Shown here piece after piece: positions 3,538-29,148 of a stretch of DNA of 64,000 nt. The notes under the pieces were generated by a model. It did not search any database. It saw only the letters and a list, made by a program, of their open reading frames with translations, and had not been told where the DNA came from. A program made the translations under genes and the position numbers. The stretch is from an uncultured bacterium (lineage in GTDB: Bacteria; Zhuqueibacterota; QNDG01; JAGLOF01), in NCBI GenBank assembly GCA_964621645.1, contig CAZUMH010000003.1:14485-78484 (forward strand), in the 5' to 3' direction. Position 1 is the stretch's first letter. The number at the start of each line of letters is the position of its first letter.

Positions 3538-3686
3538 AATCTTCCTTTCAGTTTGAACGGCCGTTATCCAAGCGGAACTCCGGAATCAGGAAAATACTCG
3601 TGGAATCACTCTGACACGAGAAATCTGTGTTTTAATGCAGAGGAAGGGGGGCAGCAAACACTGTCCCCCTTTTCCTCTTCAGATAG

Positions 3687-4038
3687 TGGAGACGGTGGGA
3701 ATCGAACCCACGTCCGAGAACGCAACCCTGGAGACCACTACGTGCGTAGTCTGTTATTAATCTTCGCCGTTACAACCCAACAGACAGGATCGTTTCCGGC
3801 TGAGCCTGAGTGATATTCACTGTTTCCCTTCAGGCGAAGGAAACAGCTAACCCGCCGATTGCGACGTTCTTACCGGAACCCGGCAGGTGCGGTGCCGGCA
3901 GAACGGGCTACCTTTTAGGCAGCCAGTGCGTATGAATAATCGTTGCCGATTATTATGTGTTCTGGTTATTTACCAGGTGCCAGAACCTGGACACGCGCTC
4001 TCCAACACCGCAGAACCCGTCGAATCCAATTCGTCCCC
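3687..4038 (-). ncRNA. ssrA: tmRNA (ssrA), tag peptide reading (G/A)NDYSYALAA-stop
   Basis: The reverse-complement 5' end GGGGACGAATTGGATTCGACGGG matches the tmRNA acceptor/5' consensus. The 3' end GGTTCGATTCCCACCGTCTCCA is a tRNA-like T-arm plus acceptor. An internal reading frame GGC AAC GAT TAT TCA TAC GCA CTG GCT GCC TAA encodes NDYSYALAA. Confidence 0.9.
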
Positions 4039-20540: not shown

Positions 20541-21983
20541 CTAATCCTGCTCAGGTGGCTCCGGAGCCTTGGATATCTCCAAACGAAGCTGACAGCGCAG
20601 ACAACGGCTGGATTCATCTACTGCGGTATCCTCTTCAAAGCAAAAATCCACCTGGTGGAATCCCTTGAGCCGTTCTTTTACCGGCAGCGTCTTGCGAATG
20701 GCCCGTTTAAGGATGGCAAAGGACTCCTTGCTTCCGATACAGGGGTTGTCGTTCTCCCGAGGCACCAGTATCTGATCAATAATACCATCCCCGCCCAGGT
20801 AACGGTCGATGCTCGCGGCGGCCCTGCGGCCCGCTGAAATGGCCTTAATCACCGAGGCCGGGCCGCTTACCACGTCCCCACCGGCAAATACACCGTCCCG
20901 GGAAGTCATCATAGTGCCCTTGTCAACCGGGATACTGCCCCATTTGTCGGTCTCAACATCGAATTTTTCTGGAACGACATGATTCTGACCGATGGCTACG
21001 ACCAGTTTATCAGCGGGAATGACAAACTCACTCCCTTCAATGGGGATGGGTCTGCGGCGTCCGCTTTCATCAGGTGGTCCTAGTTCCATGCGGATACAGG
21101 TTATATTGAGGTGATCCTTGGCGGGATCTACTTTGACCGGATTCACCAGGAAATTGAAATGCACCCCTTCATTATAGGCTTCCTCAATCTCCTCCGGATC
21201 AGCAGGGGCCTGTTCCCTGGCCCGCCGATAGAGGATGTGGACCTCGTCGGCACCCACTCGGAGAGCGGTTCGGGCTACATCCATAGCTACGTTACCTCCG
21301 CCCACTACGCAAATCTTTCCAGTGAGCCCCATGTCATTGCCATGGCTGATTCCGTTGAGCACGAAGATACCGTCCATCACCCGGGGATCATCATCTCCGG
21401 GAATTTTCATTGAACTGCCCACCGGAGCTCCCAGGCCCAGGAAGACAGCGTTATAGCCGTTATTGAAAAGAGGATCGAGATCTTCCACCTTTTTTTCCGT
21501 GTGTATTTCCACACCCAAATTCTCAATCTCTTCTATCTCGCTGTTCAGCACCTCGATAGGTAGTCGGTAGCGGGGAATGCCCGAGAACATCATACCGCCA
21601 CAGTTTTTTAACGACTCATACACTGTGATCTGATGTCCCTTGAGGCGCAGGTACCAGGCCGCTGTCAACCCTGCGGGGCCGCCTCCGATAATGGCCACTT
21701 TCTTACCAGTGTCAGGAGCGACATTCAGTTTCTTACGCCAGCTTTTATCATCTTGTTCGGCCACAAAACGTTTTATATCCCTGATGGCTATAGAGCCACC
21801 CAGATCCTGACGGCGGCAGGCAGCTTCGCAGGGATGGTCACAGACCAATCCCAGCGAATGCGGAAAAGGAACCGTTTCCCGGACCACTTCCAGCGATTCC
21901 TGGTAACGTCCCTCCGCGGCCAGCTGTACATAGCGGGGGATGTCGATGTGAGCCGGACAGGTATAGCGACAGGGAACCAGCAC
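20541..21983 (-). CDS. GltD/NfnB/SudA-family NAD(P)H-dependent FAD oxidoreductase with partial N-terminal FeS motif
   Basis: The FAD site VAIIGGGPAGLTAAWYL and NAD(P)H site ICVVGGGNVAMDVAR are present. The N-terminus reads CRYTCPAHIDIP..GLVCDHPCEAAC. It has a GTG start in frame with, and 21 nt after, the upstream gene. Confidence 0.8.
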   Translation of the reverse strand: MLVPCRYTCPAHIDIPRYVQLAAEGRYQESLEVVRETVPFPHSLGLVCDHPCEAACRRQDLGGSIAIRDIKRFVAEQDDKSWRKKLNVAPDTGKKVAIIGGGPAGLTAAWYLRLKGHQITVYESLKNCGGMMFSGIPRYRLPIEVLNSEIEEIENLGVEIHTEKKVEDLDPLFNNGYNAVFLGLGAPVGSSMKIPGDDDPRVMDGIFVLNGISHGNDMGLTGKICVVGGGNVAMDVARTALRVGADEVHILYRRAREQAPADPEEIEEAYNEGVHFNFLVNPVKVDPAKDHLNITCIRMELGPPDESGRRRPIPIEGSEFVIPADKLVVAIGQNHVVPEKFDVETDKWGSIPVDKGTMMTSRDGVFAGGDVVSGPASVIKAISAGRRAAASIDRYLGGDGIIDQILVPRENDNPCIGSKESFAILKRAIRKTLPVKERLKGFHQVDFCFEEDTAVDESSRCLRCQLRLEISKAPEPPEQD

Positions 21984-22010
21984 TTCTTCGGGATCATCCG
22001 GATTTACGGG

Positions 22011-22628
22011 CTACTTCTCCTGCATCCCACCCGAGGGGCAGACCTCAACACAGGCGCCGCAGTACTTGCAGAGAGCATCGGCATAGGAATCTCCAAAGGG
22101 AGGCCCTATCTCGGACCGATAACCACGATTAATGAATCCCAGCGTGCCCACGCCCCTCACTTCCTGACAGACAGCGACACAACGACCGCAAAGGATACAT
22201 TTATTCATGTCCCGCACGAAGAGAGGATCATCAGCGAGAACCGGCAGATCCCTCGATTTGGGCGCGTAATTGGCCAGGATTTCATCAACGCCGCAGTATT
22301 CCACCACCTTCATGAGCTGGGTATCCTTGGGCTGATCCGGGGGTAGTTCACTCAGGGTCAGCCAGATGAGCCGGCGGCGCAGTGACTGCAGCTCTTCTGT
22401 TTTCGTCTGTACCACCATCCCCTCTTTGGCCTGAGTAGCACAGGCCACAGGCAGCCCGCGCATGCCTTCGATCTGAACGACGCAGAGCCTGCAGGTGGTC
22501 AGTGGCGGCAGATCTGGGTGGTAGCAGAGGTTAGGGATATAAATCCCATTGGCCAGGGCGGCCTCCAATACTGTCTGGCCTTCCTCTACGGTAATCTTCT
22601 TATTATCTATGGTGAGATGTATACTCAT
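22011..22628 (-). CDS. NuoG/HydA N-terminal-like FeS protein ([2Fe-2S] + His-type [4Fe-4S] + [4Fe-4S])
   Basis: The product reads MSIHLTIDNKKITV..CYHPDL..C..C (2Fe-2S), then CILCGRCVAVC and CKYCGACVEVCP. The ATG at 22628 has a GAGGAAG RBS. The track ORF is over-extended. Confidence 0.8.
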   Translation of the reverse strand: MSIHLTIDNKKITVEEGQTVLEAALANGIYIPNLCYHPDLPPLTTCRLCVVQIEGMRGLPVACATQAKEGMVVQTKTEELQSLRRRLIWLTLSELPPDQPKDTQLMKVVEYCGVDEILANYAPKSRDLPVLADDPLFVRDMNKCILCGRCVAVCQEVRGVGTLGFINRGYRSEIGPPFGDSYADALCKYCGACVEVCPSGGMQEK

Positions 22629-22638
22629 AGCTTCCTCT

Positions 22639-24438
22639 TCATTCAACAGTGATGGCATCGAATCGACAGGCTTCCTTACAGGCGCCGCAGCGGGTGCAGA
22701 TATCCTGATCAATGATGTGCGCCTCTTTCTTTTCTCCGGAAATCGCTTCAACCGGACAATTCCTGGCGCAAAGGGTACAACCGGTGCATTTTTCCGGATC
22801 TATTGTGAACGTGATAAGGGCCTTGCATACTCCTGCCGGGCAGCGTTTCTCATTGACATGAGCTTCATACTCATCCCGGAAATAGCGCAGGGTGGTCAGC
22901 ACTGGATTTGGTGCTGTGTTACCGAGTCCGCAAAGCGCCGTTTTCTTGATCAAATCGGCCAGGGATTCCAGGCCTTCGACATCACCCGGCTCACCGTTTC
23001 CGCTGGTAATCTTTTCCAGCAGTTCCTTCATACGGACCAATCCGACCCGGCAGGGTGTACACTTGCCGCAGGATTCATCCACCAGGAAGTTGATGAAGTA
23101 AAGAGCGATATCAACCATACAGGTCTCTTCATCCATGACGATGAGACCGCCAGAGCCCATGATGGCGCCTGCTTCGGTCAGTTTCTCATAATCCACCGGA
23201 AGATCAAGCAGGCTGGCCGGCACGCATCCCCCCGAGGGACCGCCTGACTGTACCGCTTTGAATTTTTTCCCGCCGGGAATACCGCCGCCGATTCCGTAGA
23301 TGATCTGACGCAGCGGGATGCCCATGGGAACCTCAACCAGACCGGAATTGTTGATTTTACCGACCAAAGAGAACACCTTGGTCCCCTTGCTCTTCTCCGT
23401 ACCCAGGGTAGCATACCAGGCGCCGCTCCGCTGAATGATAATCGGCACGTTGGCCCAGGTCTCCACGTTGTTAATATTGGTGGGCTTGCCCCAGAGTCCC
23501 TTTTCAGCCGGATAGGGAGGACGGGCGCTGGGGCGTCCCGGTCTACCTTCGATGCTGGCCATAAGCGCCGTTTCCTCACCGCAGACGAAGGCTCCACCAC
23601 CGCGGATGACTTCCACCTCGAAGCTGAATCCGGTGTCAAGGATATTCTCTCCCAGAAGTCCGTAATCAGTTGCCTGTTCAATGGCGTTCTTGATCCTTCT
23701 CACCGCCAGCGGATATTCATCCCGTACGTATATAAAACCCTTGCTGGCTCCTATCGCCTTGGCCCCGATGGTCATTCCCTCCAGAACGGCATGGGGATCA
23801 GCCTCGAGAATTGAACGATCCATATAGGCCCCGGGATCGCCCTCATCGGCGTTGCAGATGAGATATTTAACATCGCCCGGAGACTTCTTGCAGAGTGCCC
23901 ACTTAATTGCCGTGGGGAAACCTCCTCCTCCCCGTCCCCGCAGACCGGAGATCTTGATCTCTTCGATGATTTCCTCCGGGGACATACCGGTCAGGGCTTT
24001 AGCCAGCGCCTGATACCCGTCAAATGCGATATACTCATCAATCTTCTCCGGATCCATCCGGCCCCGGTTGCGAAGCACCACCAGCATCTGGTGCTTGAAG
24101 AAATCTATGTCCATCAGCTTGGGTATTTCTTTCTTGGCATCCTCCGGCACATACATGCATTTTTTATAGGGACGCCCTTTGAGAAAATGTTCCTCCACCA
24201 GGAGGGGAATGTCCTTCTCGCTGAGTTCCTGATAAAACACATCTTCAGGCTGTACAATAGCGATCGGTCCTCTCTCGCAAAATCCCTGACAGCCGGTGGC
24301 GATTATCTGCACTTCCTCTTCCAGTCCCCGCTTCTTGATCTCCTGCTCGAAGGCATCTTTGATAAGCATGGACCTGTTGGAAACGCAGCCCGTCCCGGCG
24401 CATACCAGCACATGAGTCCTGTATTTTCTTGAATCCAC
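22639..24438 (-). CDS. NuoF/HydB-like NADH-binding FMN FeS flavoprotein with N-terminal Trx-like [2Fe-2S] and C-terminal 2x[4Fe-4S] domains
   Basis: The motif GLRGRGGGGFPT, an FMN/NADH site and CGKCTPCR are present, plus two C-terminal ferredoxin motifs. Size is 599 aa. Confidence 0.9.
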   Translation of the reverse strand: MDSRKYRTHVLVCAGTGCVSNRSMLIKDAFEQEIKKRGLEEEVQIIATGCQGFCERGPIAIVQPEDVFYQELSEKDIPLLVEEHFLKGRPYKKCMYVPEDAKKEIPKLMDIDFFKHQMLVVLRNRGRMDPEKIDEYIAFDGYQALAKALTGMSPEEIIEEIKISGLRGRGGGGFPTAIKWALCKKSPGDVKYLICNADEGDPGAYMDRSILEADPHAVLEGMTIGAKAIGASKGFIYVRDEYPLAVRRIKNAIEQATDYGLLGENILDTGFSFEVEVIRGGGAFVCGEETALMASIEGRPGRPSARPPYPAEKGLWGKPTNINNVETWANVPIIIQRSGAWYATLGTEKSKGTKVFSLVGKINNSGLVEVPMGIPLRQIIYGIGGGIPGGKKFKAVQSGGPSGGCVPASLLDLPVDYEKLTEAGAIMGSGGLIVMDEETCMVDIALYFINFLVDESCGKCTPCRVGLVRMKELLEKITSGNGEPGDVEGLESLADLIKKTALCGLGNTAPNPVLTTLRYFRDEYEAHVNEKRCPAGVCKALITFTIDPEKCTGCTLCARNCPVEAISGEKKEAHIIDQDICTRCGACKEACRFDAITVE

Positions 24439-24446
24439 TGTAACTC

Positions 24447-24893
24447 CTATTGATATTTTTCCAGAACCTTGCCAATATCCTTCTGGGTCAATTTACCATG
24501 AAAATTCTCGTCGATAACCATGACCGGCGCCAATCCGCAGCATCCTACGCATCTCACTTCTTCAAGGGTAAAGCGTTCATCCGCAGTGGTTTCTCCGTTC
24601 CTGATTCCCAGATCACGCTCGAGCTTCTCCACCAGTTTGGCAGCGCCGCGTACGTGACAGGCGGTGCCGGTGCACACATTAATGGTGTGCCGGCCCCTGG
24701 GTGTCAGGCTGAAGGCCTTATAAAAAGTAGCCAGGCTGTAGAGGCGGGAGAGAGGGACACTCACTTCGGCGGCCACGATCTTCAGCGCCTCCTTGGGCAG
24801 ATATCCTTTTTCCTTCTGAATATCCTGAAGCATGGCAATTAAGCTGCGCTCACGTTTGTTATATCTTTCCACTATTTGTTTTACTGACTTCAA
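24447..24893 (-). CDS. NuoE/HydC-like [2Fe-2S] thioredoxin-fold protein
   Basis: The NuoE-type cluster motifs C..CTGTACHVRGA..VRCVGCCGLAP are present. Size is 148 aa. Confidence 0.9.
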   Translation of the reverse strand: MKSVKQIVERYNKRERSLIAMLQDIQKEKGYLPKEALKIVAAEVSVPLSRLYSLATFYKAFSLTPRGRHTINVCTGTACHVRGAAKLVEKLERDLGIRNGETTADERFTLEEVRCVGCCGLAPVMVIDENFHGKLTQKDIGKVLEKYQ

Positions 24894-24914: not shown

Positions 24915-25457
24915 TCAATCTATTTGAATCTTGCGCAAATCGTTCAGTTCCCGCCGCACAAATTTTATCACGGCCGGAGTACTGCGAACTGCTTCTCCAT
25001 ACTCTTCTTCTATACGGGATGAGTGCCAGCTGAATTCTTCTCTTTCCCCATGATAGTTTATCTGAAATTCCGTCTGGGGATGGGCGGTCAGCAGCACGAT
25101 CATCATCTCGACAAGATCGCCCAAAGGCTGGCGGTCGATATGATTGCTGTGAAAAACCGCCTCAACACTGGTTCCCTGGTCCGGGATTGAGTGTATGGTC
25201 AAATCACCGCCTGTTTTCCTGGCCGCCTCCTTCATCATGGAAAGGCCCAGTCCCACTCTCTTTTTATCCTTTGTGGTTATAAAGGGATCGAGGACGGCCC
25301 GTTGCATATCTTCATCCATGCCTCGGCCATTGTCCAGAATCTGAATCGCAAGAGTAGAGTCTTCCTTTTCCTCACTCAGATCGATTACCACAAGATCGGC
25401 TCCGGCTCTCACCGAATTTTCCACGATATCGATGATATGGAGCGATATTTCAATCAT
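24915..25457 (-). CDS. GHKL/histidine-kinase-like ATPase domain protein (no sensor or DHp domain)
   Basis: The HATPase_c-like motif ILDNGRGMDED...GLGLSMM is present. Proteins of this type recur in HydABC-type operons. Confidence 0.65.
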   Translation of the reverse strand: MIEISLHIIDIVENSVRAGADLVVIDLSEEKEDSTLAIQILDNGRGMDEDMQRAVLDPFITTKDKKRVGLGLSMMKEAARKTGGDLTIHSIPDQGTSVEAVFHSNHIDRQPLGDLVEMMIVLLTAHPQTEFQINYHGEREEFSWHSSRIEEEYGEAVRSTPAVIKFVRRELNDLRKIQID

Positions 25458-26209
25458 GCCGTCTTCATCCGTGAAACCACTTTTCTGCCTTCCTGGTTTT
25501 TCAAGGCAAGCCGCATCTCAGCGGTGGTCATCTCGGCAACCGTCCATTCGGTCCAGACCCGGCCAATATCATCGAGTCGGTGGGCATCCGACGACCGGAT
25601 CAGGGGAAAGTCTGCGGCGCCAGGGAGCTTCTTTACCTCTTCCAGATCTCCCCGGGGAGAAACTTCAAGCGCGTCAAGAGCCAATCCTTCCGGAATAAAT
25701 CCCAGCTGGCTGATAAGGCTGTAACTGCCCCGGTCGACGTGTGAGGCCACTGCCAGACCGTTCAGAGCGTGAATATGACCGACCACTTCTTCCACCGTCA
25801 GTGTCGTCCCTCCGATGAGAAGCCGGTATTCAAAATACTCCACCTCGTCGTTCTCGTTTGCCACTACCTGCATGCCAAAGAGCTCATCATCATTGCGTCC
25901 GGGCAAAAGATGATTATATACGGTATCCTGCAGAGTCAGGACCTCTGCGGCCCTGTCAAACAGTGCCAGGATATGGACTTCCTCGGCGGTGCTCACTTCC
26001 ATGCCTGCCAGAATCCTGGGCCCCTCATCGCCCGCGGCGGCCGATACTCCCGCCACGTTCTTGGCGCTGTTGTGATCACTGACAGCGACGGTATCAAGCT
26101 TTTCCCGTCGGCAGCGCTCCACAATTTTCATTGGGGTCATCTCCAACTCGCCGCAGGGGGAAAGGCAGGTATGCAGATGCAGATCGGCCTTGAATACGCA
26201 AAGGCTCAT
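25454..26209 (-). CDS. PHP-domain metal-dependent phosphoesterase
   Basis: PHP motifs are present (DLHLHTCLSPCG; VAVSDHN; SDAH). Confidence 0.7.
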   Translation of the reverse strand: MSLCVFKADLHLHTCLSPCGELEMTPMKIVERCRREKLDTVAVSDHNSAKNVAGVSAAAGDEGPRILAGMEVSTAEEVHILALFDRAAEVLTLQDTVYNHLLPGRNDDELFGMQVVANENDEVEYFEYRLLIGGTTLTVEEVVGHIHALNGLAVASHVDRGSYSLISQLGFIPEGLALDALEVSPRGDLEEVKKLPGAADFPLIRSSDAHRLDDIGRVWTEWTVAEMTTAEMRLALKNQEGRKVVSRMKTA

Positions 26210-26553
26210 CCTTTCCGGCCGACCCCCAGATTGTAGAGACGTCCGGCTAATTCATAGGCGGAAAGATCCGAGGCCAGAAGAGGCACACCTTCCTTTTCCG
26301 CTTTCTCCCTGGTCTGATCCGCGGGCTGCTTACCGCCGATGATAACGATCCCGGCCAGTTCCTTGAGAGTCGCTACGGCCACGGTGTTTTCATGAACCTG
26401 CAGGGTAAGCCAAAGATCTCCTTTCCTGGAATTGGCGATCACGTCACTAAGCATGTCGCTTACATACCCGTTTTCCACTTCGGCATCAAGTTTGCCGGCA
26501 GCTGCTTCTACCGATAATTTCAGCTTTTCAACAATGTCCGCAAGTTTCATCAT
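26206..26553 (-). CDS. DRTGG domain protein
   Basis: The 115-aa product belongs to the small DRTGG family and is a paralog of 28271-28603. Confidence 0.55.
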   Translation of the reverse strand: MMKLADIVEKLKLSVEAAAGKLDAEVENGYVSDMLSDVIANSRKGDLWLTLQVHENTVAVATLKELAGIVIIGGKQPADQTREKAEKEGVPLLASDLSAYELAGRLYNLGVGRKG

Positions 26554-26559
26554 ATTTCC

Positions 26560-27819
26560 CTATTTATTCTGGGTCACGAACACGCAGTCTTCCAGTCGGG
26601 CCTCGCCCCTGACAATATCTCTGGCCAGGGTTTTGCAATCCGGGGCACCGCAGGCGCCGCACTCCTTGCCTCCCAGCTGGGGGATGAGTTCTTCGATTCG
26701 CTGCCTCTTTTTCAAGGCCTTAACCGGATCGGGGTCCAAAGGAGGCAGAGGATGGCGCTCCATCCCTTTCTCCAGAAAGAAGTAGTTCTCTTGATAGAGA
26801 CGCCGGATCACCTTGCGGCTCACCCGGCTGCGTTCCCCGAACATCTTCACCAGGTTTTCGGACCGCTTCTTGGCAATATGACGGTTTTCCACTACCTGGG
26901 GTCCACCGATGCAGCCGTCCGGGCAGACAAGGCACTCCAGATACTGGATATCCTTCAGTTTCCCCGCCTCCACATCATCCAGAATCTGAATGACATCGGA
27001 GACTCCCGAAACGGCCAGACAGTTATCCAGGTTGATCCCGTTAACCTCTCCTCCGGATTTACCCCAGCCGAGTCCAACGCCGCTTGACTGCTGCAGGATG
27101 ATATCTTCGTCCATGTCTTCAATGACCTCAAGAAGATCGGCGTAAATATCACTGATCGCTATGGCACCGTCAAGGGAAGATTTGGAAAGCCCGATGGGAT
27201 TATTGATCGACACCATCTTGGCCGAACAGGAGGTGATATGGATGATACCGATCTCCTCTTCTTTGAAGCCTTTCTCTTGCGCCAGCTTCTTGCGAAGATT
27301 CCTGGCCAGCACCTCTCTTGGAACATCGATAGGCATCATATTCTCCGCCAGCTCGGGATAGAGGAAGGAGACCAGCCGTACCACCGCCGGACAGACCGTG
27401 GAAATACGCGGCCGGGGACCTTTATCCTCTTTTAAAAAGATCTCGTAAGCGGCATTTACCTTCTCGCACACCCAGGCCAGATCAACAACGTAATCAAAGC
27501 CTATTTTGCGAAGAGCCAGCAATACCTGATTGGGCATTACCTCCCAGCCAAACTGGGTGTATAACACCGGCGAGGGGAGGGCCACTGTGTATTTAAACCG
27601 TTTCAAATCGGAAAATGAAGTCGTCTGGGGCACGACCGCTTCGTGGGGGCAGACCCGATAGCATTCCCCGCAATCAACGCAGCGCTCACTCAAAATAACC
27701 GCTTTCCCAGTGCGTACCCTAATGGCCTTGGTGGGACAGGCCTTCATACAGAGAACACACCCCACGCACTTATCTTCATCTATCGTAAGGGAGTGCAGTT
27801 TTTTAACCGGTTTATCCAT
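26560..27819 (-). CDS. [FeFe]-hydrogenase-like protein (HydS/HfsB-like, putative sensory/regulatory), N-terminal 2x[4Fe-4S], C-terminal extra Cys4
   Basis: H-cluster motif equivalents are P1 STVCP (TSCCP lacking the proton-relay Cys), P2 TSCSAKM (MPCxxK) and P3 ECLVCPDGCIGGPQ (ExMACxxGCxxGG). The C-terminus carries CGACGAPDC...C. Confidence 0.75.
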   Translation of the reverse strand: MDKPVKKLHSLTIDEDKCVGCVLCMKACPTKAIRVRTGKAVILSERCVDCGECYRVCPHEAVVPQTTSFSDLKRFKYTVALPSPVLYTQFGWEVMPNQVLLALRKIGFDYVVDLAWVCEKVNAAYEIFLKEDKGPRPRISTVCPAVVRLVSFLYPELAENMMPIDVPREVLARNLRKKLAQEKGFKEEEIGIIHITSCSAKMVSINNPIGLSKSSLDGAIAISDIYADLLEVIEDMDEDIILQQSSGVGLGWGKSGGEVNGINLDNCLAVSGVSDVIQILDDVEAGKLKDIQYLECLVCPDGCIGGPQVVENRHIAKKRSENLVKMFGERSRVSRKVIRRLYQENYFFLEKGMERHPLPPLDPDPVKALKKRQRIEELIPQLGGKECGACGAPDCKTLARDIVRGEARLEDCVFVTQNK

Positions 27820-28261
27820 TATTTACCGCTCTCTTGATATGAATTTCCAATCTGGTCCCTTTTCCGGCAGCGGTGTCTATCTTCAGCTCGTCGGAATTTC
27901 TCTTGATATTGGGCAGCCCCATCCCAGCGCCGAATCCCATCTCCCGCATTTCGTCGGTAGCGGTTGAGTATCCTTCCTGCATAGCTTTAGTCACATCCGG
28001 AATACCAGGACCTTTGTCCTCTACGATGAGGATAACATCCTCGGGATTGACTCGAAGCGTCACTTTACCCCCGCCACCATACATGACCACATTCATCTCC
28101 GCTTCGTAGGAAGCCACTGCCACCCGCCGGATAACCGAAGAGTCGAATCCCACCTCTTTAAGGATATTCTTGATCTGTACGGAAGCTTCTCCGGCACTGG
28201 CAAAGTCGTTTCCTTTTATCTGGAATGACTTCTGGAAAAGAACCTGTTCACTCATGCTCAT
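27812..28261 (-). CDS. GHKL/anti-sigma-factor-like ATPase domain protein
   Basis: The HATPase_c-like motif IVEDKGPGIPD...GFGAGMGL is present. Size is 149 aa. Confidence 0.6.
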   Translation of the reverse strand: MSMSEQVLFQKSFQIKGNDFASAGEASVQIKNILKEVGFDSSVIRRVAVASYEAEMNVVMYGGGGKVTLRVNPEDVILIVEDKGPGIPDVTKAMQEGYSTATDEMREMGFGAGMGLPNIKRNSDELKIDTAAGKGTRLEIHIKRAVNNG

Positions 28262-28270
28262 CTTTCCATT

Positions 28271-28603
28271 TCATTTCAGATGGGAGTAGAGAATCCCGCA
28301 GACTTCAAACATGCTCAGATCCGTTGCCAAAAGAGGAAAACCGCGATTTTCCGCAAGTTTAATGGTCTCCTCGCTGGGCACTTTTCCCCGCACATAGACA
28401 ATGGCACCCAGGTCGACTACTTCTGCGGTACGCACCGTCTGAGCGTTAACCAGTCCGGTAACGAGAATATCTCCGCGTCTGCTGGAGCTGAGAACATCGC
28501 TCATCAGATCGGATGCCTTGATATAGGAAACCTCCATATCGAAGTCTACCGAGTCTGTCAGGGCCCGGGCCTGGATTAGCTCCTTGATAGTTGCCAGTTT
28601 CAC
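28271..28603 (-). CDS. DRTGG domain protein
   Basis: The 110-aa product is a paralog of 26206-26553. Confidence 0.55.
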   Translation of the reverse strand: MKLATIKELIQARALTDSVDFDMEVSYIKASDLMSDVLSSSRRGDILVTGLVNAQTVRTAEVVDLGAIVYVRGKVPSEETIKLAENRGFPLLATDLSMFEVCGILYSHLK

Positions 28604-29148
28604 GTTTTTCCATCCTCGCTTCTGGATGATTCCTTGATAGGTGACTTTTTACCCTGTTCGCGGGAACTCACTATCTCTTCCCGAATGATCCGGCGGGCGA
28701 CAGCGGGAATCGCCGCCGTGACCTCCGGTGTGCAGGAGTCCCCGAAAGTGGTGACGTCCTTCACGCCGATACCGTAGATGACTATCTCTTCCGGCAGATC
28801 CATCTTCAGTCTCTGTCCCAACGCCAGTGCCTCGTTCAAGGGAACCTGATGACGTGACATGGCCGATCCTCCGGTCAAATCTTCGGCCTTCAATCTGACC
28901 AGAGAACCGGGCCCGGCCGTCCCCAAAGCATCAACAATGACGACCTTGCGATACCCGCGCATCAGATCCAACAGTTCAAGTCCACCCAGGCTGGCTTCGA
29001 TGAAGTCGACCCCGGCACCGCTGTACAATTTTTCAATCTCCCGGCTGACATAGATACCCACCCCGTCATCGCTGAGAATAGTGTTGCCCAAACCGAGGAT
29101 CAGCGTGGGGGATTCCCGTTTGGGGAGAGTATGCCCGGAGCGGCTCAC
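28600..29148 (-). CDS. Hydrogenase maturation protease family protein (HyaD/HybD/FrhD-like)
   Basis: The N-terminus LILGLGNTILSDDGVGIYV matches the HybD-like fold. It also has DALG and a C-terminal His candidate. Confidence 0.65.
   Translation of the reverse strand: MSRSGHTLPKRESPTLILGLGNTILSDDGVGIYVSREIEKLYSGAGVDFIEASLGGLELLDLMRGYRKVVIVDALGTAGPGSLVRLKAEDLTGGSAMSRHQVPLNEALALGQRLKMDLPEEIVIYGIGVKDVTTFGDSCTPEVTAAIPAVARRIIREEIVSSREQGKKSPIKESSRSEDGKT

Follow-up and report, generated by a model that had tools for sequence, protein, structure and literature searches.

A stretch of 64,000 nucleotides from an uncultured bacterium of the Zhuqueibacterota (contig CAZUMH010000003.1 of assembly GCA_964621645.1), to which we refer as the window, contains on its minus strand, at 26560-27819, an intact open reading frame (ORF) for a 419-amino-acid relative of the [FeFe]-hydrogenases, the target of this study. 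By its sequence, this protein is a regular, well-conserved [FeFe]-hydrogenase homologue of group D (the M2e subclass) of the TamHydS type; its class is already known, and the protein itself brings no new chemistry. The main finding concerns the company that it keeps: the gene is the third of six in a rigid module of apparently active enzymes, and the constant partner of this cassette across phyla is, to judge from gene neighbourhoods, a NuoE/NuoF core and not a hydrogenase. Our preferred reading, to which we lean with some confidence, is that the target would be matured by HydEFG, bind an H-cluster, report H2 or the redox state and, via the cassette, tune the adjacent Bfu-type enzyme.

The target as a group D protein

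Group D, or M2e, is a named and biochemically studied class of [FeFe]-hydrogenases (PMC8163306, PMC10407848, PMC13104023), represented by TamHydS, its only characterised member. TamHydS combines a low turnover with a high affinity for H2, an H2-induced structural change and a stabilised reduced state; it catalyses both H2 oxidation and H2 evolution, at low rates, and the apoprotein is stable with its iron-sulphur (FeS) clusters alone (PMC8163306 for both points). We used the TamHydS sequence given in the supplement of PMC6984386, machine-read from the PDF (434 of 435 residues); from about residue 250 onwards its numbering is off by one, and residue equivalences to TamHydS rest on alignment, not on numbering. 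Those of the H-domain are in CpI numbering and were read from the alignment to the D. desulfuricans [FeFe]-hydrogenase (DdH). The features of the target are these:

26560-27819, minus strand: the target, group D (M2e-type) [FeFe]-hydrogenase homologue (Pfam Fer4 twice, Fe_hyd_lg_C and FeS; TamHydS match; AlphaFold2 fold)
27637-27786, minus strand: two N-terminal [4Fe-4S] motifs, residues 12-61 (Pfam Fer4 twice, translation)
26899-27591, minus strand: H-domain, residues 77-307 (Pfam PF02906, Fe_hyd_lg_C, E 3e-26; alignment to DdH)
27388-27402, minus strand: P1 motif STVCP, with V142 at C299 (proton-relay Cys replaced by Val) and C143 at ligand C300 (DdH alignment, exact translation)
27208-27234, minus strand: P2 motif TSCSAKMVS, with T196 at M353, C198 at C355, K201 at K358 and S204 at E361 (DdH alignment, translation)
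27043-27057, minus strand: SGGEV, with S255 and E258 at S249 and E252 of TamHydS, part of the proposed group D proton path (BLASTP alignment)
26896-26937, minus strand: P3 motif ECLVCPDGCIGGPQ, with L297 at M497, C299 at C499 and C303 at C503, the bridging Cys (DdH alignment, translation)
within 26896-26937, minus strand: E295 of P3, at E289 of TamHydS (BLASTP alignment)
26584-26661, minus strand: C-terminal Cx2Cx4Cx16C (C387, C390, C395, C412), site of an extra [4Fe-4S] cluster (Pfam PF04060 "FeS", residues 384-414; translation)

When all PDB sequences are searched with phmmer, the top matches are the [FeFe]-hydrogenases of D. desulfuricans and C. pasteurianum (E 2e-21 to 1e-14), DdH itself being matched at E 2e-21. 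The DdH alignment sets STVCP of the target opposite TSCCP, ITSCSAKMVS opposite IMPCIAKKYE, and LECLVCPDGCIGGPQ opposite IEYMACPGGCVCGGGQ. All four H-cluster ligands (C300, C355, C499 and C503) are thereby found in the target, as C143, C198, C299 and C303, together with Lys358 (K201), while the proton-relay Cys299 is replaced by V142, Glu361 by S204, Met353 by T196 and Met497 by L297. A sequence-only reading of this DNA had already named the four ligand cysteines from motif spacing, the Val in place of the proton-transfer Cys and the Ser in place of the motif 2 Glu; the alignment to DdH bears out these assignments. The same is true of its two accessory cluster regions: the N-terminal CxxCxxCxxxCP occurs twice (C18-C28 and C47-C57), and the C-terminal motif reads CGACGAPDC-x16-C in the exact translation, that is, precisely the Cx2Cx4Cx16C defined for M2e and M2f proteins (PMC8163306). 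It was also right in calling the protein HydS-like without a PAS domain: Pfam finds no PAS in the target, and the chain stops at residue 419, only 7 residues past the last Cys.

The AlphaFold2 model (input of 39 homologues; mean pLDDT 90.6, pTM 0.88) has its best structural matches among the solved [FeFe]-hydrogenases, namely DdH, CbA5H, CpI and the HydA of HydABC; the query-normalised TM-score is about 0.69 and E about 1e-20, so that the likeness of the predicted fold to these enzymes is far beyond chance.

An identical protein is on record (P0001). A database search returned 1439 homologues at E <= 1e-10. The best 120 of these, mostly from metagenome assemblies (KSB1, WOR-3, TA06, Deltaproteobacteria and unclassified), have the same domain set as the target, a few being shortened at the N-terminus; aligned together with TamHydS, they make up the 121 sequences to which the following counts refer. 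The four H-cluster cysteines and the four C-terminal ones are kept in every sequence, and each of the eight N-terminal cluster cysteines in 114 to 121. At the position of Cys299 there is never a Cys (Thr in 71, Val in 26, Ile in 11, Ala in 4); the Met353 position is Thr or Ser throughout, that of Glu361 is Ser in 120 and that of Met497 is Leu in 106. Lys358 has a Lys as its equivalent in 116 sequences, the TamHydS glutamates E252 and E289 (E258 and E295 of the target) have theirs in 118 and 120, respectively, and both Gly residues that follow the bridging Cys are kept in 119 to 121.

We place the target in group D on three grounds: the feature-by-feature match to the definition of M2e, the identity to TamHydS over the full length, and the kept group D glutamates. 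As to the first, the target has what PMC8163306 describes for M2e, namely N-terminal clusters, four H-cluster cysteines, no Cys299 pathway, Ser/Thr at Met353, the C-terminal Cx2Cx4Cx16C and no PAS. As to the second, the target and TamHydS are 42% identical by BLASTP (E 1e-107), and residues 8-419 align colinearly, without rearrangement; in the pairwise comparison, group A enzymes are more remote (E about 1e-21), and identity to these and to a kinase-fused, C1-like H-domain described below (25% for that one) is about 20-25%. As to the third, E252 and E289 of TamHydS have been proposed, and mutated, as a proton path specific to group D (PMC10407848); the equivalents of E252, E289 and S249 are all present in the target, D265, a residue of the proposed proton exit, being the one departure (Ser in the target, as in 111 of the 121 sequences).

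Besides these glutamates and the C-terminal motif, the target shares with TamHydS the two N-terminal [4Fe-4S] sites, all H-cluster cysteines, the lack of Cys299 and of PAS, a hydroxyl residue at M353 (Thr in the target, Ser in TamHydS) and Leu at M497; at position 299, however, it has Val where TamHydS has Ala, and its D265 position is Ser. With the M2f (group C) proteins TmHydS, HfsB and R. albus HydS it has in common the N-terminal clusters, an H-domain without Cys299 or the group A proton path, the C-terminal Cx2Cx4Cx16C and an association in the genome with kinase/phosphatase genes and Bfu-type operons. Group C is nevertheless distinguished by a PAS domain after the extra cluster, Gly/Ser at M353/M497 and Ser phosphatases of the PP2C type as partners, whereas the target has no PAS and is accompanied by DRTGG, GHKL-ATPase and PHP proteins. 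Group A (CpI, DdHydAB, the HydA of HydABC) has the same fold, the four H-cluster cysteines, Lys358 and the ferredoxin-like N-terminal domain; its TSCCP with Cys299 and its E279/S319/E282/R286 pathway are not found in the target, which reads STVCP, has Ser for E361, is without Met353 and Met497, carries an extra C-terminal cluster domain and is identical to these enzymes at about 20% of positions only.

A six-gene cassette and its NuoE/NuoF partner

The target belongs to a minus-strand operon that begins with fumA and fumB (class I fumarase) and continues with a HycI-type protease, a DRTGG protein, a GHKL ATPase of 149 amino acids, the target, a second DRTGG protein, a PHP phosphoesterase, a GHKL ATPase of 180 amino acids, NuoE-like and NuoF-like subunits, an FeS protein and a GltD-like flavoprotein. 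From fumB to the GltD part, the junctions range from an 8-nucleotide overlap to a 27-nucleotide gap; the stop of the 149-amino-acid ATPase gene overlaps the start of the target by 8 nucleotides. The cassette proper has the order DRTGG, SpoIIAB-like ATPase, M2e, DRTGG, PHP phosphoesterase, kinase-type ATPase, and its genes other than the target are:

28271-28603, minus strand: DRTGG-domain protein 1, 110 amino acids, first gene of the cassette (Pfam DRTGG, below the family cutoff)
27812-28261, minus strand: SpoIIAB/RsbW-like GHKL ATPase, 149 amino acids (Pfam HATPase_c and HATPase_c_2; PDB SpoIIAB)
26206-26553, minus strand: DRTGG-domain protein 2, 115 amino acids (Pfam DRTGG)
25454-26209, minus strand: PHP-family metal-dependent phosphoesterase, 251 amino acids (Pfam PHP and PHP_C; PDB phosphoesterases of the TrpH/YciV type)
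24915-25457, minus strand: stand-alone ATPase, 180 amino acids, like the catalytic domain of histidine kinases (Pfam HATPase_c, E 6e-16)

The best PDB matches of the first ATPase are to the anti-sigma F factor SpoIIAB, a serine kinase (E 1e-4); a PDB sequence search with DRTGG protein 2 gave no match.

Using the operon proteins as queries, we surveyed 165 related loci, drawn from collections of genomes and metagenomes. Of these, 89 loci (85 distinct genes) have an M2e protein at least 48% identical to the target and represent a large uncultured clade, called the clade here; partner genes were counted in those clade loci whose flank is long enough. Both DRTGG1 and the first ATPase are present in 69 of 69 such loci, DRTGG2 in 82 of 83, the PHP gene in 67 of 68 and the second ATPase in 58 of 58. 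In Clostridia and Marinilabiliales, whose M2e proteins are more distant (33-41% identity to the target), the same cassette is found around the M2e gene. When the partner proteins are aligned, both ATPases prove invariant in their ATP-binding boxes (N, G1 and G2 in the first; N, G1, F and G2 in the second) and the PHP protein in all its metal ligands, and equally invariant is a D..SDV...T pattern common to the two DRTGG proteins (SDxxSDV...T in DRTGG1). It is on this retention of partner genes and of their ATP boxes, metal ligands and DRTGG pattern that we base the view of the cassette as a rigid six-gene module of apparently active enzymes. Residues 9-19 of the PHP protein (25454-26209, minus strand) also form an invariant DLHxHTCLSPC, with two cysteines (C15 and C19) which could provide an extra metal or redox site.

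The gene order also bears on a question raised in the literature, since the latest TamHydS work describes the interaction partners of group D as unknown and finding them as a critical next step: the invariant arrangement names five concrete candidate partners. In our literature searches, the coverage of which is incomplete, we found no paper describing a DRTGG/PHP cassette with hydrogenases or the gene neighbourhoods of group D.

Downstream of the cassette lie the genes of the enzyme that it accompanies:

24447-24893, minus strand: NuoE/HydC-like [2Fe-2S] subunit, BfuC (Pfam 2Fe-2S_thioredx, E 6e-54)
22639-24438, minus strand: NuoF/HydB-like FMN/NAD(H) subunit, BfuB, with C-terminal 2x[4Fe-4S] (Pfam Complex1_51K, NADH_4Fe-4S and Fer4 twice)
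20541-22628, minus strand: BfuA-like third subunit (Pfam Fer2_4, Fer4_Nqo3, Fer4_20 and Pyr_redox_2)
22014-22628, minus strand: HydA-type N-terminal FeS domains of the BfuA-like subunit
20541-22010, minus strand: GltD/NfnB-like FAD/NADPH module of the BfuA-like subunit

The NuoF-like subunit has the architecture of HydB/BfuB, the C-terminal 2x[4Fe-4S] domain included. In the third subunit, the PDB matches of the FeS part are to the N-terminal cluster domains of HydA and StnC/NfnA, and those of the GltD part to the inserts of NfnA/StnC (9bov_A, E 8e-117; 8oh5_C, E 1e-108; 9n5u_A, E 1.5e-105); it is thus a HydA-like FeS stalk with an NADPH-binding flavoprotein module in the place of the H-domain of HydA, and such module replacement is, according to Schut et al., the pattern of non-hydrogenase Bfu enzymes. 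Our best prediction from these sequences is therefore an NAD(H)/ferredoxin/NADP(H) electron-bifurcating transhydrogenase, a minimal relative of Nfn-Bfu/Stn. With S. ovata StnABC, C. saccharolyticus NfnABC and the Nfn-Bfu of T. sibiricus it shares NuoE-like and NuoF-like subunits (BfuC and BfuB) and a third subunit (BfuA) that joins HydA-type FeS domains to a GltD/NfnB-like FAD/NADPH module. The domain order differs, however: StnC/NfnA has the GltD module inserted after the [2Fe-2S] domain and followed by a molybdopterin-like domain, whereas the module of the window stands behind the FeS domains, and a pterin-like domain is absent. No associated sensor cassette is mentioned in the literature that we examined on Stn and Nfn-Bfu or in the survey of Bfu enzymes.

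The BfuA-like gene is interrupted by an in-frame TAG at 22011-22013, which separates an FeS part of 205 amino acids from the GltD-like part. In the closest relatives on long contigs (L081 and L083) the orthologues are single proteins of 696 amino acids, to which both ORFs of the window align end to end; the TAG falls in the linker, where these orthologues have Thr or Lys, and translation could resume at a GTG nine codons further on. A point (nonsense) mutation, an assembly error or a genuine split of the gene is a more likely origin than recoding as selenocysteine, in view of the codon (TAG, not TGA) and of the Thr/Lys of the orthologues. One might take this stop in a neighbouring gene as a sign that the target is itself what is left of a decaying hydrogenase operon and has lost its function. 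We find this highly improbable: the ORF of the target is intact, its 85 distinct relatives at 48% identity or more have all cofactor ligands invariant, the gene order is rigid, with overlaps that imply translational coupling, and purifying selection is seen.

No catalytic HydA was found in the operon or elsewhere in the 64-kb window by NCBIfam and Pfam scans of large ORFs. The absence of a catalytic hydrogenase from the operon, already remarked upon in the sequence-only reading, is thus upheld, the third subunit having a GltD/NfnB-like module. The same reading called this absence unusual, which holds when the published Firmicutes examples are the standard; within the clade, it is the rule. NuoF is present in 42 clade loci, in none of which a HydA-type H-domain stands beside it, and the matches of the HydA queries cover only residues of about 8-235, that is, the FeS domains. 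GltD-, GluSyn- or FdhA-like modules occur in 31 of the 42 (23 loci have a GltD-like module, 17 a Glu_synthase domain protein of the GltB type and 9 a molybdopterin subunit of the FdhA/NuoG-like kind, the last usually followed by NfnA- and NfnB-like genes); 11 loci are truncated or interrupted. Four of the six Firmicutes/Bacteroidota loci with NuoF do have a full HydA, with MPCxxK, CPGGCxxGG and TSCCP or TSCSP. It is the comparison between these two sets (0/42 against 4/6) that leads us to see the constant partner of the cassette in the NuoE/NuoF core. TamHydS itself is encoded upstream of a bifurcating HydABC hydrogenase, adjoining an AraC regulator (PMC8163306), and an adjacent group A bifurcating hydrogenase is a frequent, though not a strictly required, trait of group D; the target, by contrast, lies upstream of an Nfn-Bfu/Stn-like enzyme, with neither a hydrogenase nor a DNA-binding protein.

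Sensor, subunit or FeS protein

What could such a module do? Starting from the biochemistry of TamHydS, we propose that the target, matured by HydEFG, would bind an H-cluster and react with H2 at high affinity but slowly, so that it would report H2 or the redox state instead of carrying metabolic flux. Its H2-dependent state would be passed by protein contacts to the SpoIIAB-like ATPase and would feed a cycle of phosphorylation and dephosphorylation in which the kinase-like ATPases are opposed by the PHP enzyme, the DRTGG proteins being likely substrates or adaptors; this cycle would in turn tune the adjacent NuoEF/Bfu-type enzyme. Since the cassette includes no DNA-binding protein, the control would probably be post-translational. 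A fusion of a NuoE-like subunit to a response-regulator receiver domain (L084, 13834-14712, where toxin-antitoxin genes are interspersed in the partner operon) fits phospho-control exerted directly on the Bfu core.

A functional analogue exists in the regulatory [NiFe]-hydrogenase system HoxBC-HoxJ, likewise a low-turnover hydrogenase thought to be an H2 sensor and coupled to a kinase; its metal site and fold are unrelated, however, and HoxJ, which possesses PAS and HisKA domains, works via a response regulator.

Several points weigh against our proposal and should be acknowledged. No group D protein has a demonstrated sensory output, and the sensory role of the whole group, TamHydS included, is a hypothesis. 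The claim of the sequence-only reading that the protein is a sensor rather than a catalyst is accordingly supported in part: it shares the standing of this class-wide hypothesis, and TamHydS does turn over H2, if slowly. Furthermore, the latest TamHydS work reports that the C-terminal cluster is not reduced by H2, which removes the simplest route for a signal. The cassette contains neither a DNA-binding domain nor a known phospho-acceptor fold, which makes the phospho-relay a conjecture, and the PHP protein has its closest solved relatives among nucleotide phosphoesterases, not protein phosphatases. The in-frame TAG means that the controlled enzyme may be impaired in this genome or assembly. 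Finally, the NCBIfam and Pfam scans of large ORFs revealed none of the maturase genes hydE, hydF and hydG in the 64-kb window.

This last result is relevant to another explanation, in which the target would carry [4Fe-4S] clusters only, without the [2Fe] subcluster, as eukaryotic Nar1/NARFL does, and would sense ferredoxin or the redox state independently of H2. We think this rather unlikely. The 64 kb do lack both hydEFG and a catalytic hydrogenase, the partner enzymes handle ferredoxin and NAD(P)H, not H2, and apo-TamHydS shows that such a protein can be stable with FeS clusters alone. Yet residues that are relevant only with a [2Fe] site and its amine are strongly kept in the 121 sequences (Lys358 and the equivalents of E252 and E289, as well as the Gly pair after the bridging Cys). 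The genes for HydEFG are often encoded far from those of hydrogenases, and for this reason their absence from one window says little.

A further alternative is that the M2e protein is a working hydrogenase subunit that docks on NuoE/NuoF/Fd-GltD and supplies or removes electrons as H2, making the complex an H2-dependent NAD(P)+/ferredoxin oxidoreductase, with the ATPase, DRTGG and PHP proteins as assembly or regulatory accessories. It has attractions: no other H-domain is present beside NuoF in the operon or in any of the 42 clade loci, TamHydS catalyses H2 turnover in both directions, the N-terminal 2x[4Fe-4S] domain is the usual electron wire of DdH-type enzymes, the genes of the operon are translationally coupled, and in Hydrogenedentota a sensor-type protein of group C3 has been regarded as an additional subunit of Bfu, "BfuT". 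We nevertheless regard it as improbable. The same cassette occurs in Firmicutes/Bacteroidota operons with a complete HydA after NuoF, where M2e is not needed as a catalytic unit; moreover, the group A proton pathway is absent, the rates of TamHydS are low, and the BfuA-like subunit already ends in a catalytic NADPH module of its own.

Returning to the sensory reading, one may ask how far it extends beyond this operon. We would suggest, tentatively and with some doubt, that group D proteins are the H2/redox-sensing head of a six-protein module whose core partner is NuoE/NuoF, and not regulators specific to hydrogenases. The constancy of NuoE/NuoF as a neighbour widens their likely role, which would go beyond the control of H2 production and extend to that of redox balancing by electron bifurcation in general. 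If this is true, the module in the clade would govern Bfu enzymes of the transhydrogenase, glutamate-synthase and formate-dehydrogenase-like kinds, and in the window it would couple the availability of H2 to the NADH/NADPH/ferredoxin balance of a tricarboxylic acid (TCA) cycle gene cluster; that H2 would set the balance of NADH, NADPH and reduced ferredoxin needed in this setting is speculation on our part. A stronger form of the idea would have the M2e protein plug into Bfu complexes as their H2 input. In any event, an operon without another hydrogenase is a natural system in which to separate a sensory from a catalytic role.

Surroundings of the operon and variant loci

The HycI-type gene that precedes the cassette (28600-29148, minus strand; Pfam HycI, E 2e-16) encodes a homologue of [NiFe]-hydrogenase maturation proteases. 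It shares 4 nucleotides with each of its neighbours, fumB and the first cassette gene, and is thus translationally coupled to both; it is kept at the same place in the closest relatives (L001-L003, L081 and L083). There is no [NiFe] hydrogenase in the 64-kb window, and its membership in the cassette system is uncertain.

The only other H-domains in the clade loci belong to a second, tandem M2e cassette (L112) and to a kinase-fused protein of the sensor type (L003, L088 and L098). The latter, at 2954-5041 of L003, is a 695-amino-acid fusion of 2x[4Fe-4S], an H-domain (with SSFCP as P1), Cx2Cx4Cx16C, HisKA and HATPase_c, and is by its domain composition a hydrogenase-like sensor histidine kinase, group C1-like; its gene stands between that for HycI and the M2e cassette, adjoining response regulators and an NfnAB fusion. 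In L112 (2012-8980), two M2e cassettes are arranged in tandem, and their M2e proteins share 37% and 52% identity with the target; a NuoE gene separates the cassettes, and downstream come NuoF, an FdhA-like gene, NfnA and NfnB.

Among the partner operons, L085 (13422-19161) and others such as L101, L105, L113, L123 and L128 encode a NuoF::GltD fusion of about 1000 amino acids, a 234-amino-acid FeS protein and a GltB-type Glu_synthase protein, a hint that an enzyme like glutamate synthase, linked to NuoEF and possibly bifurcating, stands under the same cassette. In two of the Clostridia loci (L006, 3862-5634, minus strand; L007, 15813-17570), the HydA after NuoF has TSCSP and not TSCCP as P1, MPCxxK and CPGGCxxGG being kept.

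The operon is surrounded by a large TCA/redox cluster (29145-60834, minus strand), with genes for citrate synthase, aconitase, isocitrate dehydrogenase, class I fumarase and succinyl-CoA synthetase, two sets of 2-oxoacid:ferredoxin oxidoreductases, a TfrAB-like fumarate reductase, several HdrA-like genes, one MvhD-like and one HdrB-like gene. Pfam and NCBIfam confirm that 2-oxoglutarate ferredoxin oxidoreductases and Hdr-like proteins are encoded in it, and this composition suggests a ferredoxin-linked, possibly reversible, TCA cycle. A scan of 19-33 kb for promoters and terminators gave sites no more numerous than in shuffled sequence. Towards the start of the window, at 3684-4038 on the minus strand, lies a tmRNA gene (Rfam RF00023, 177.6 bits), the sole Rfam match in the window.

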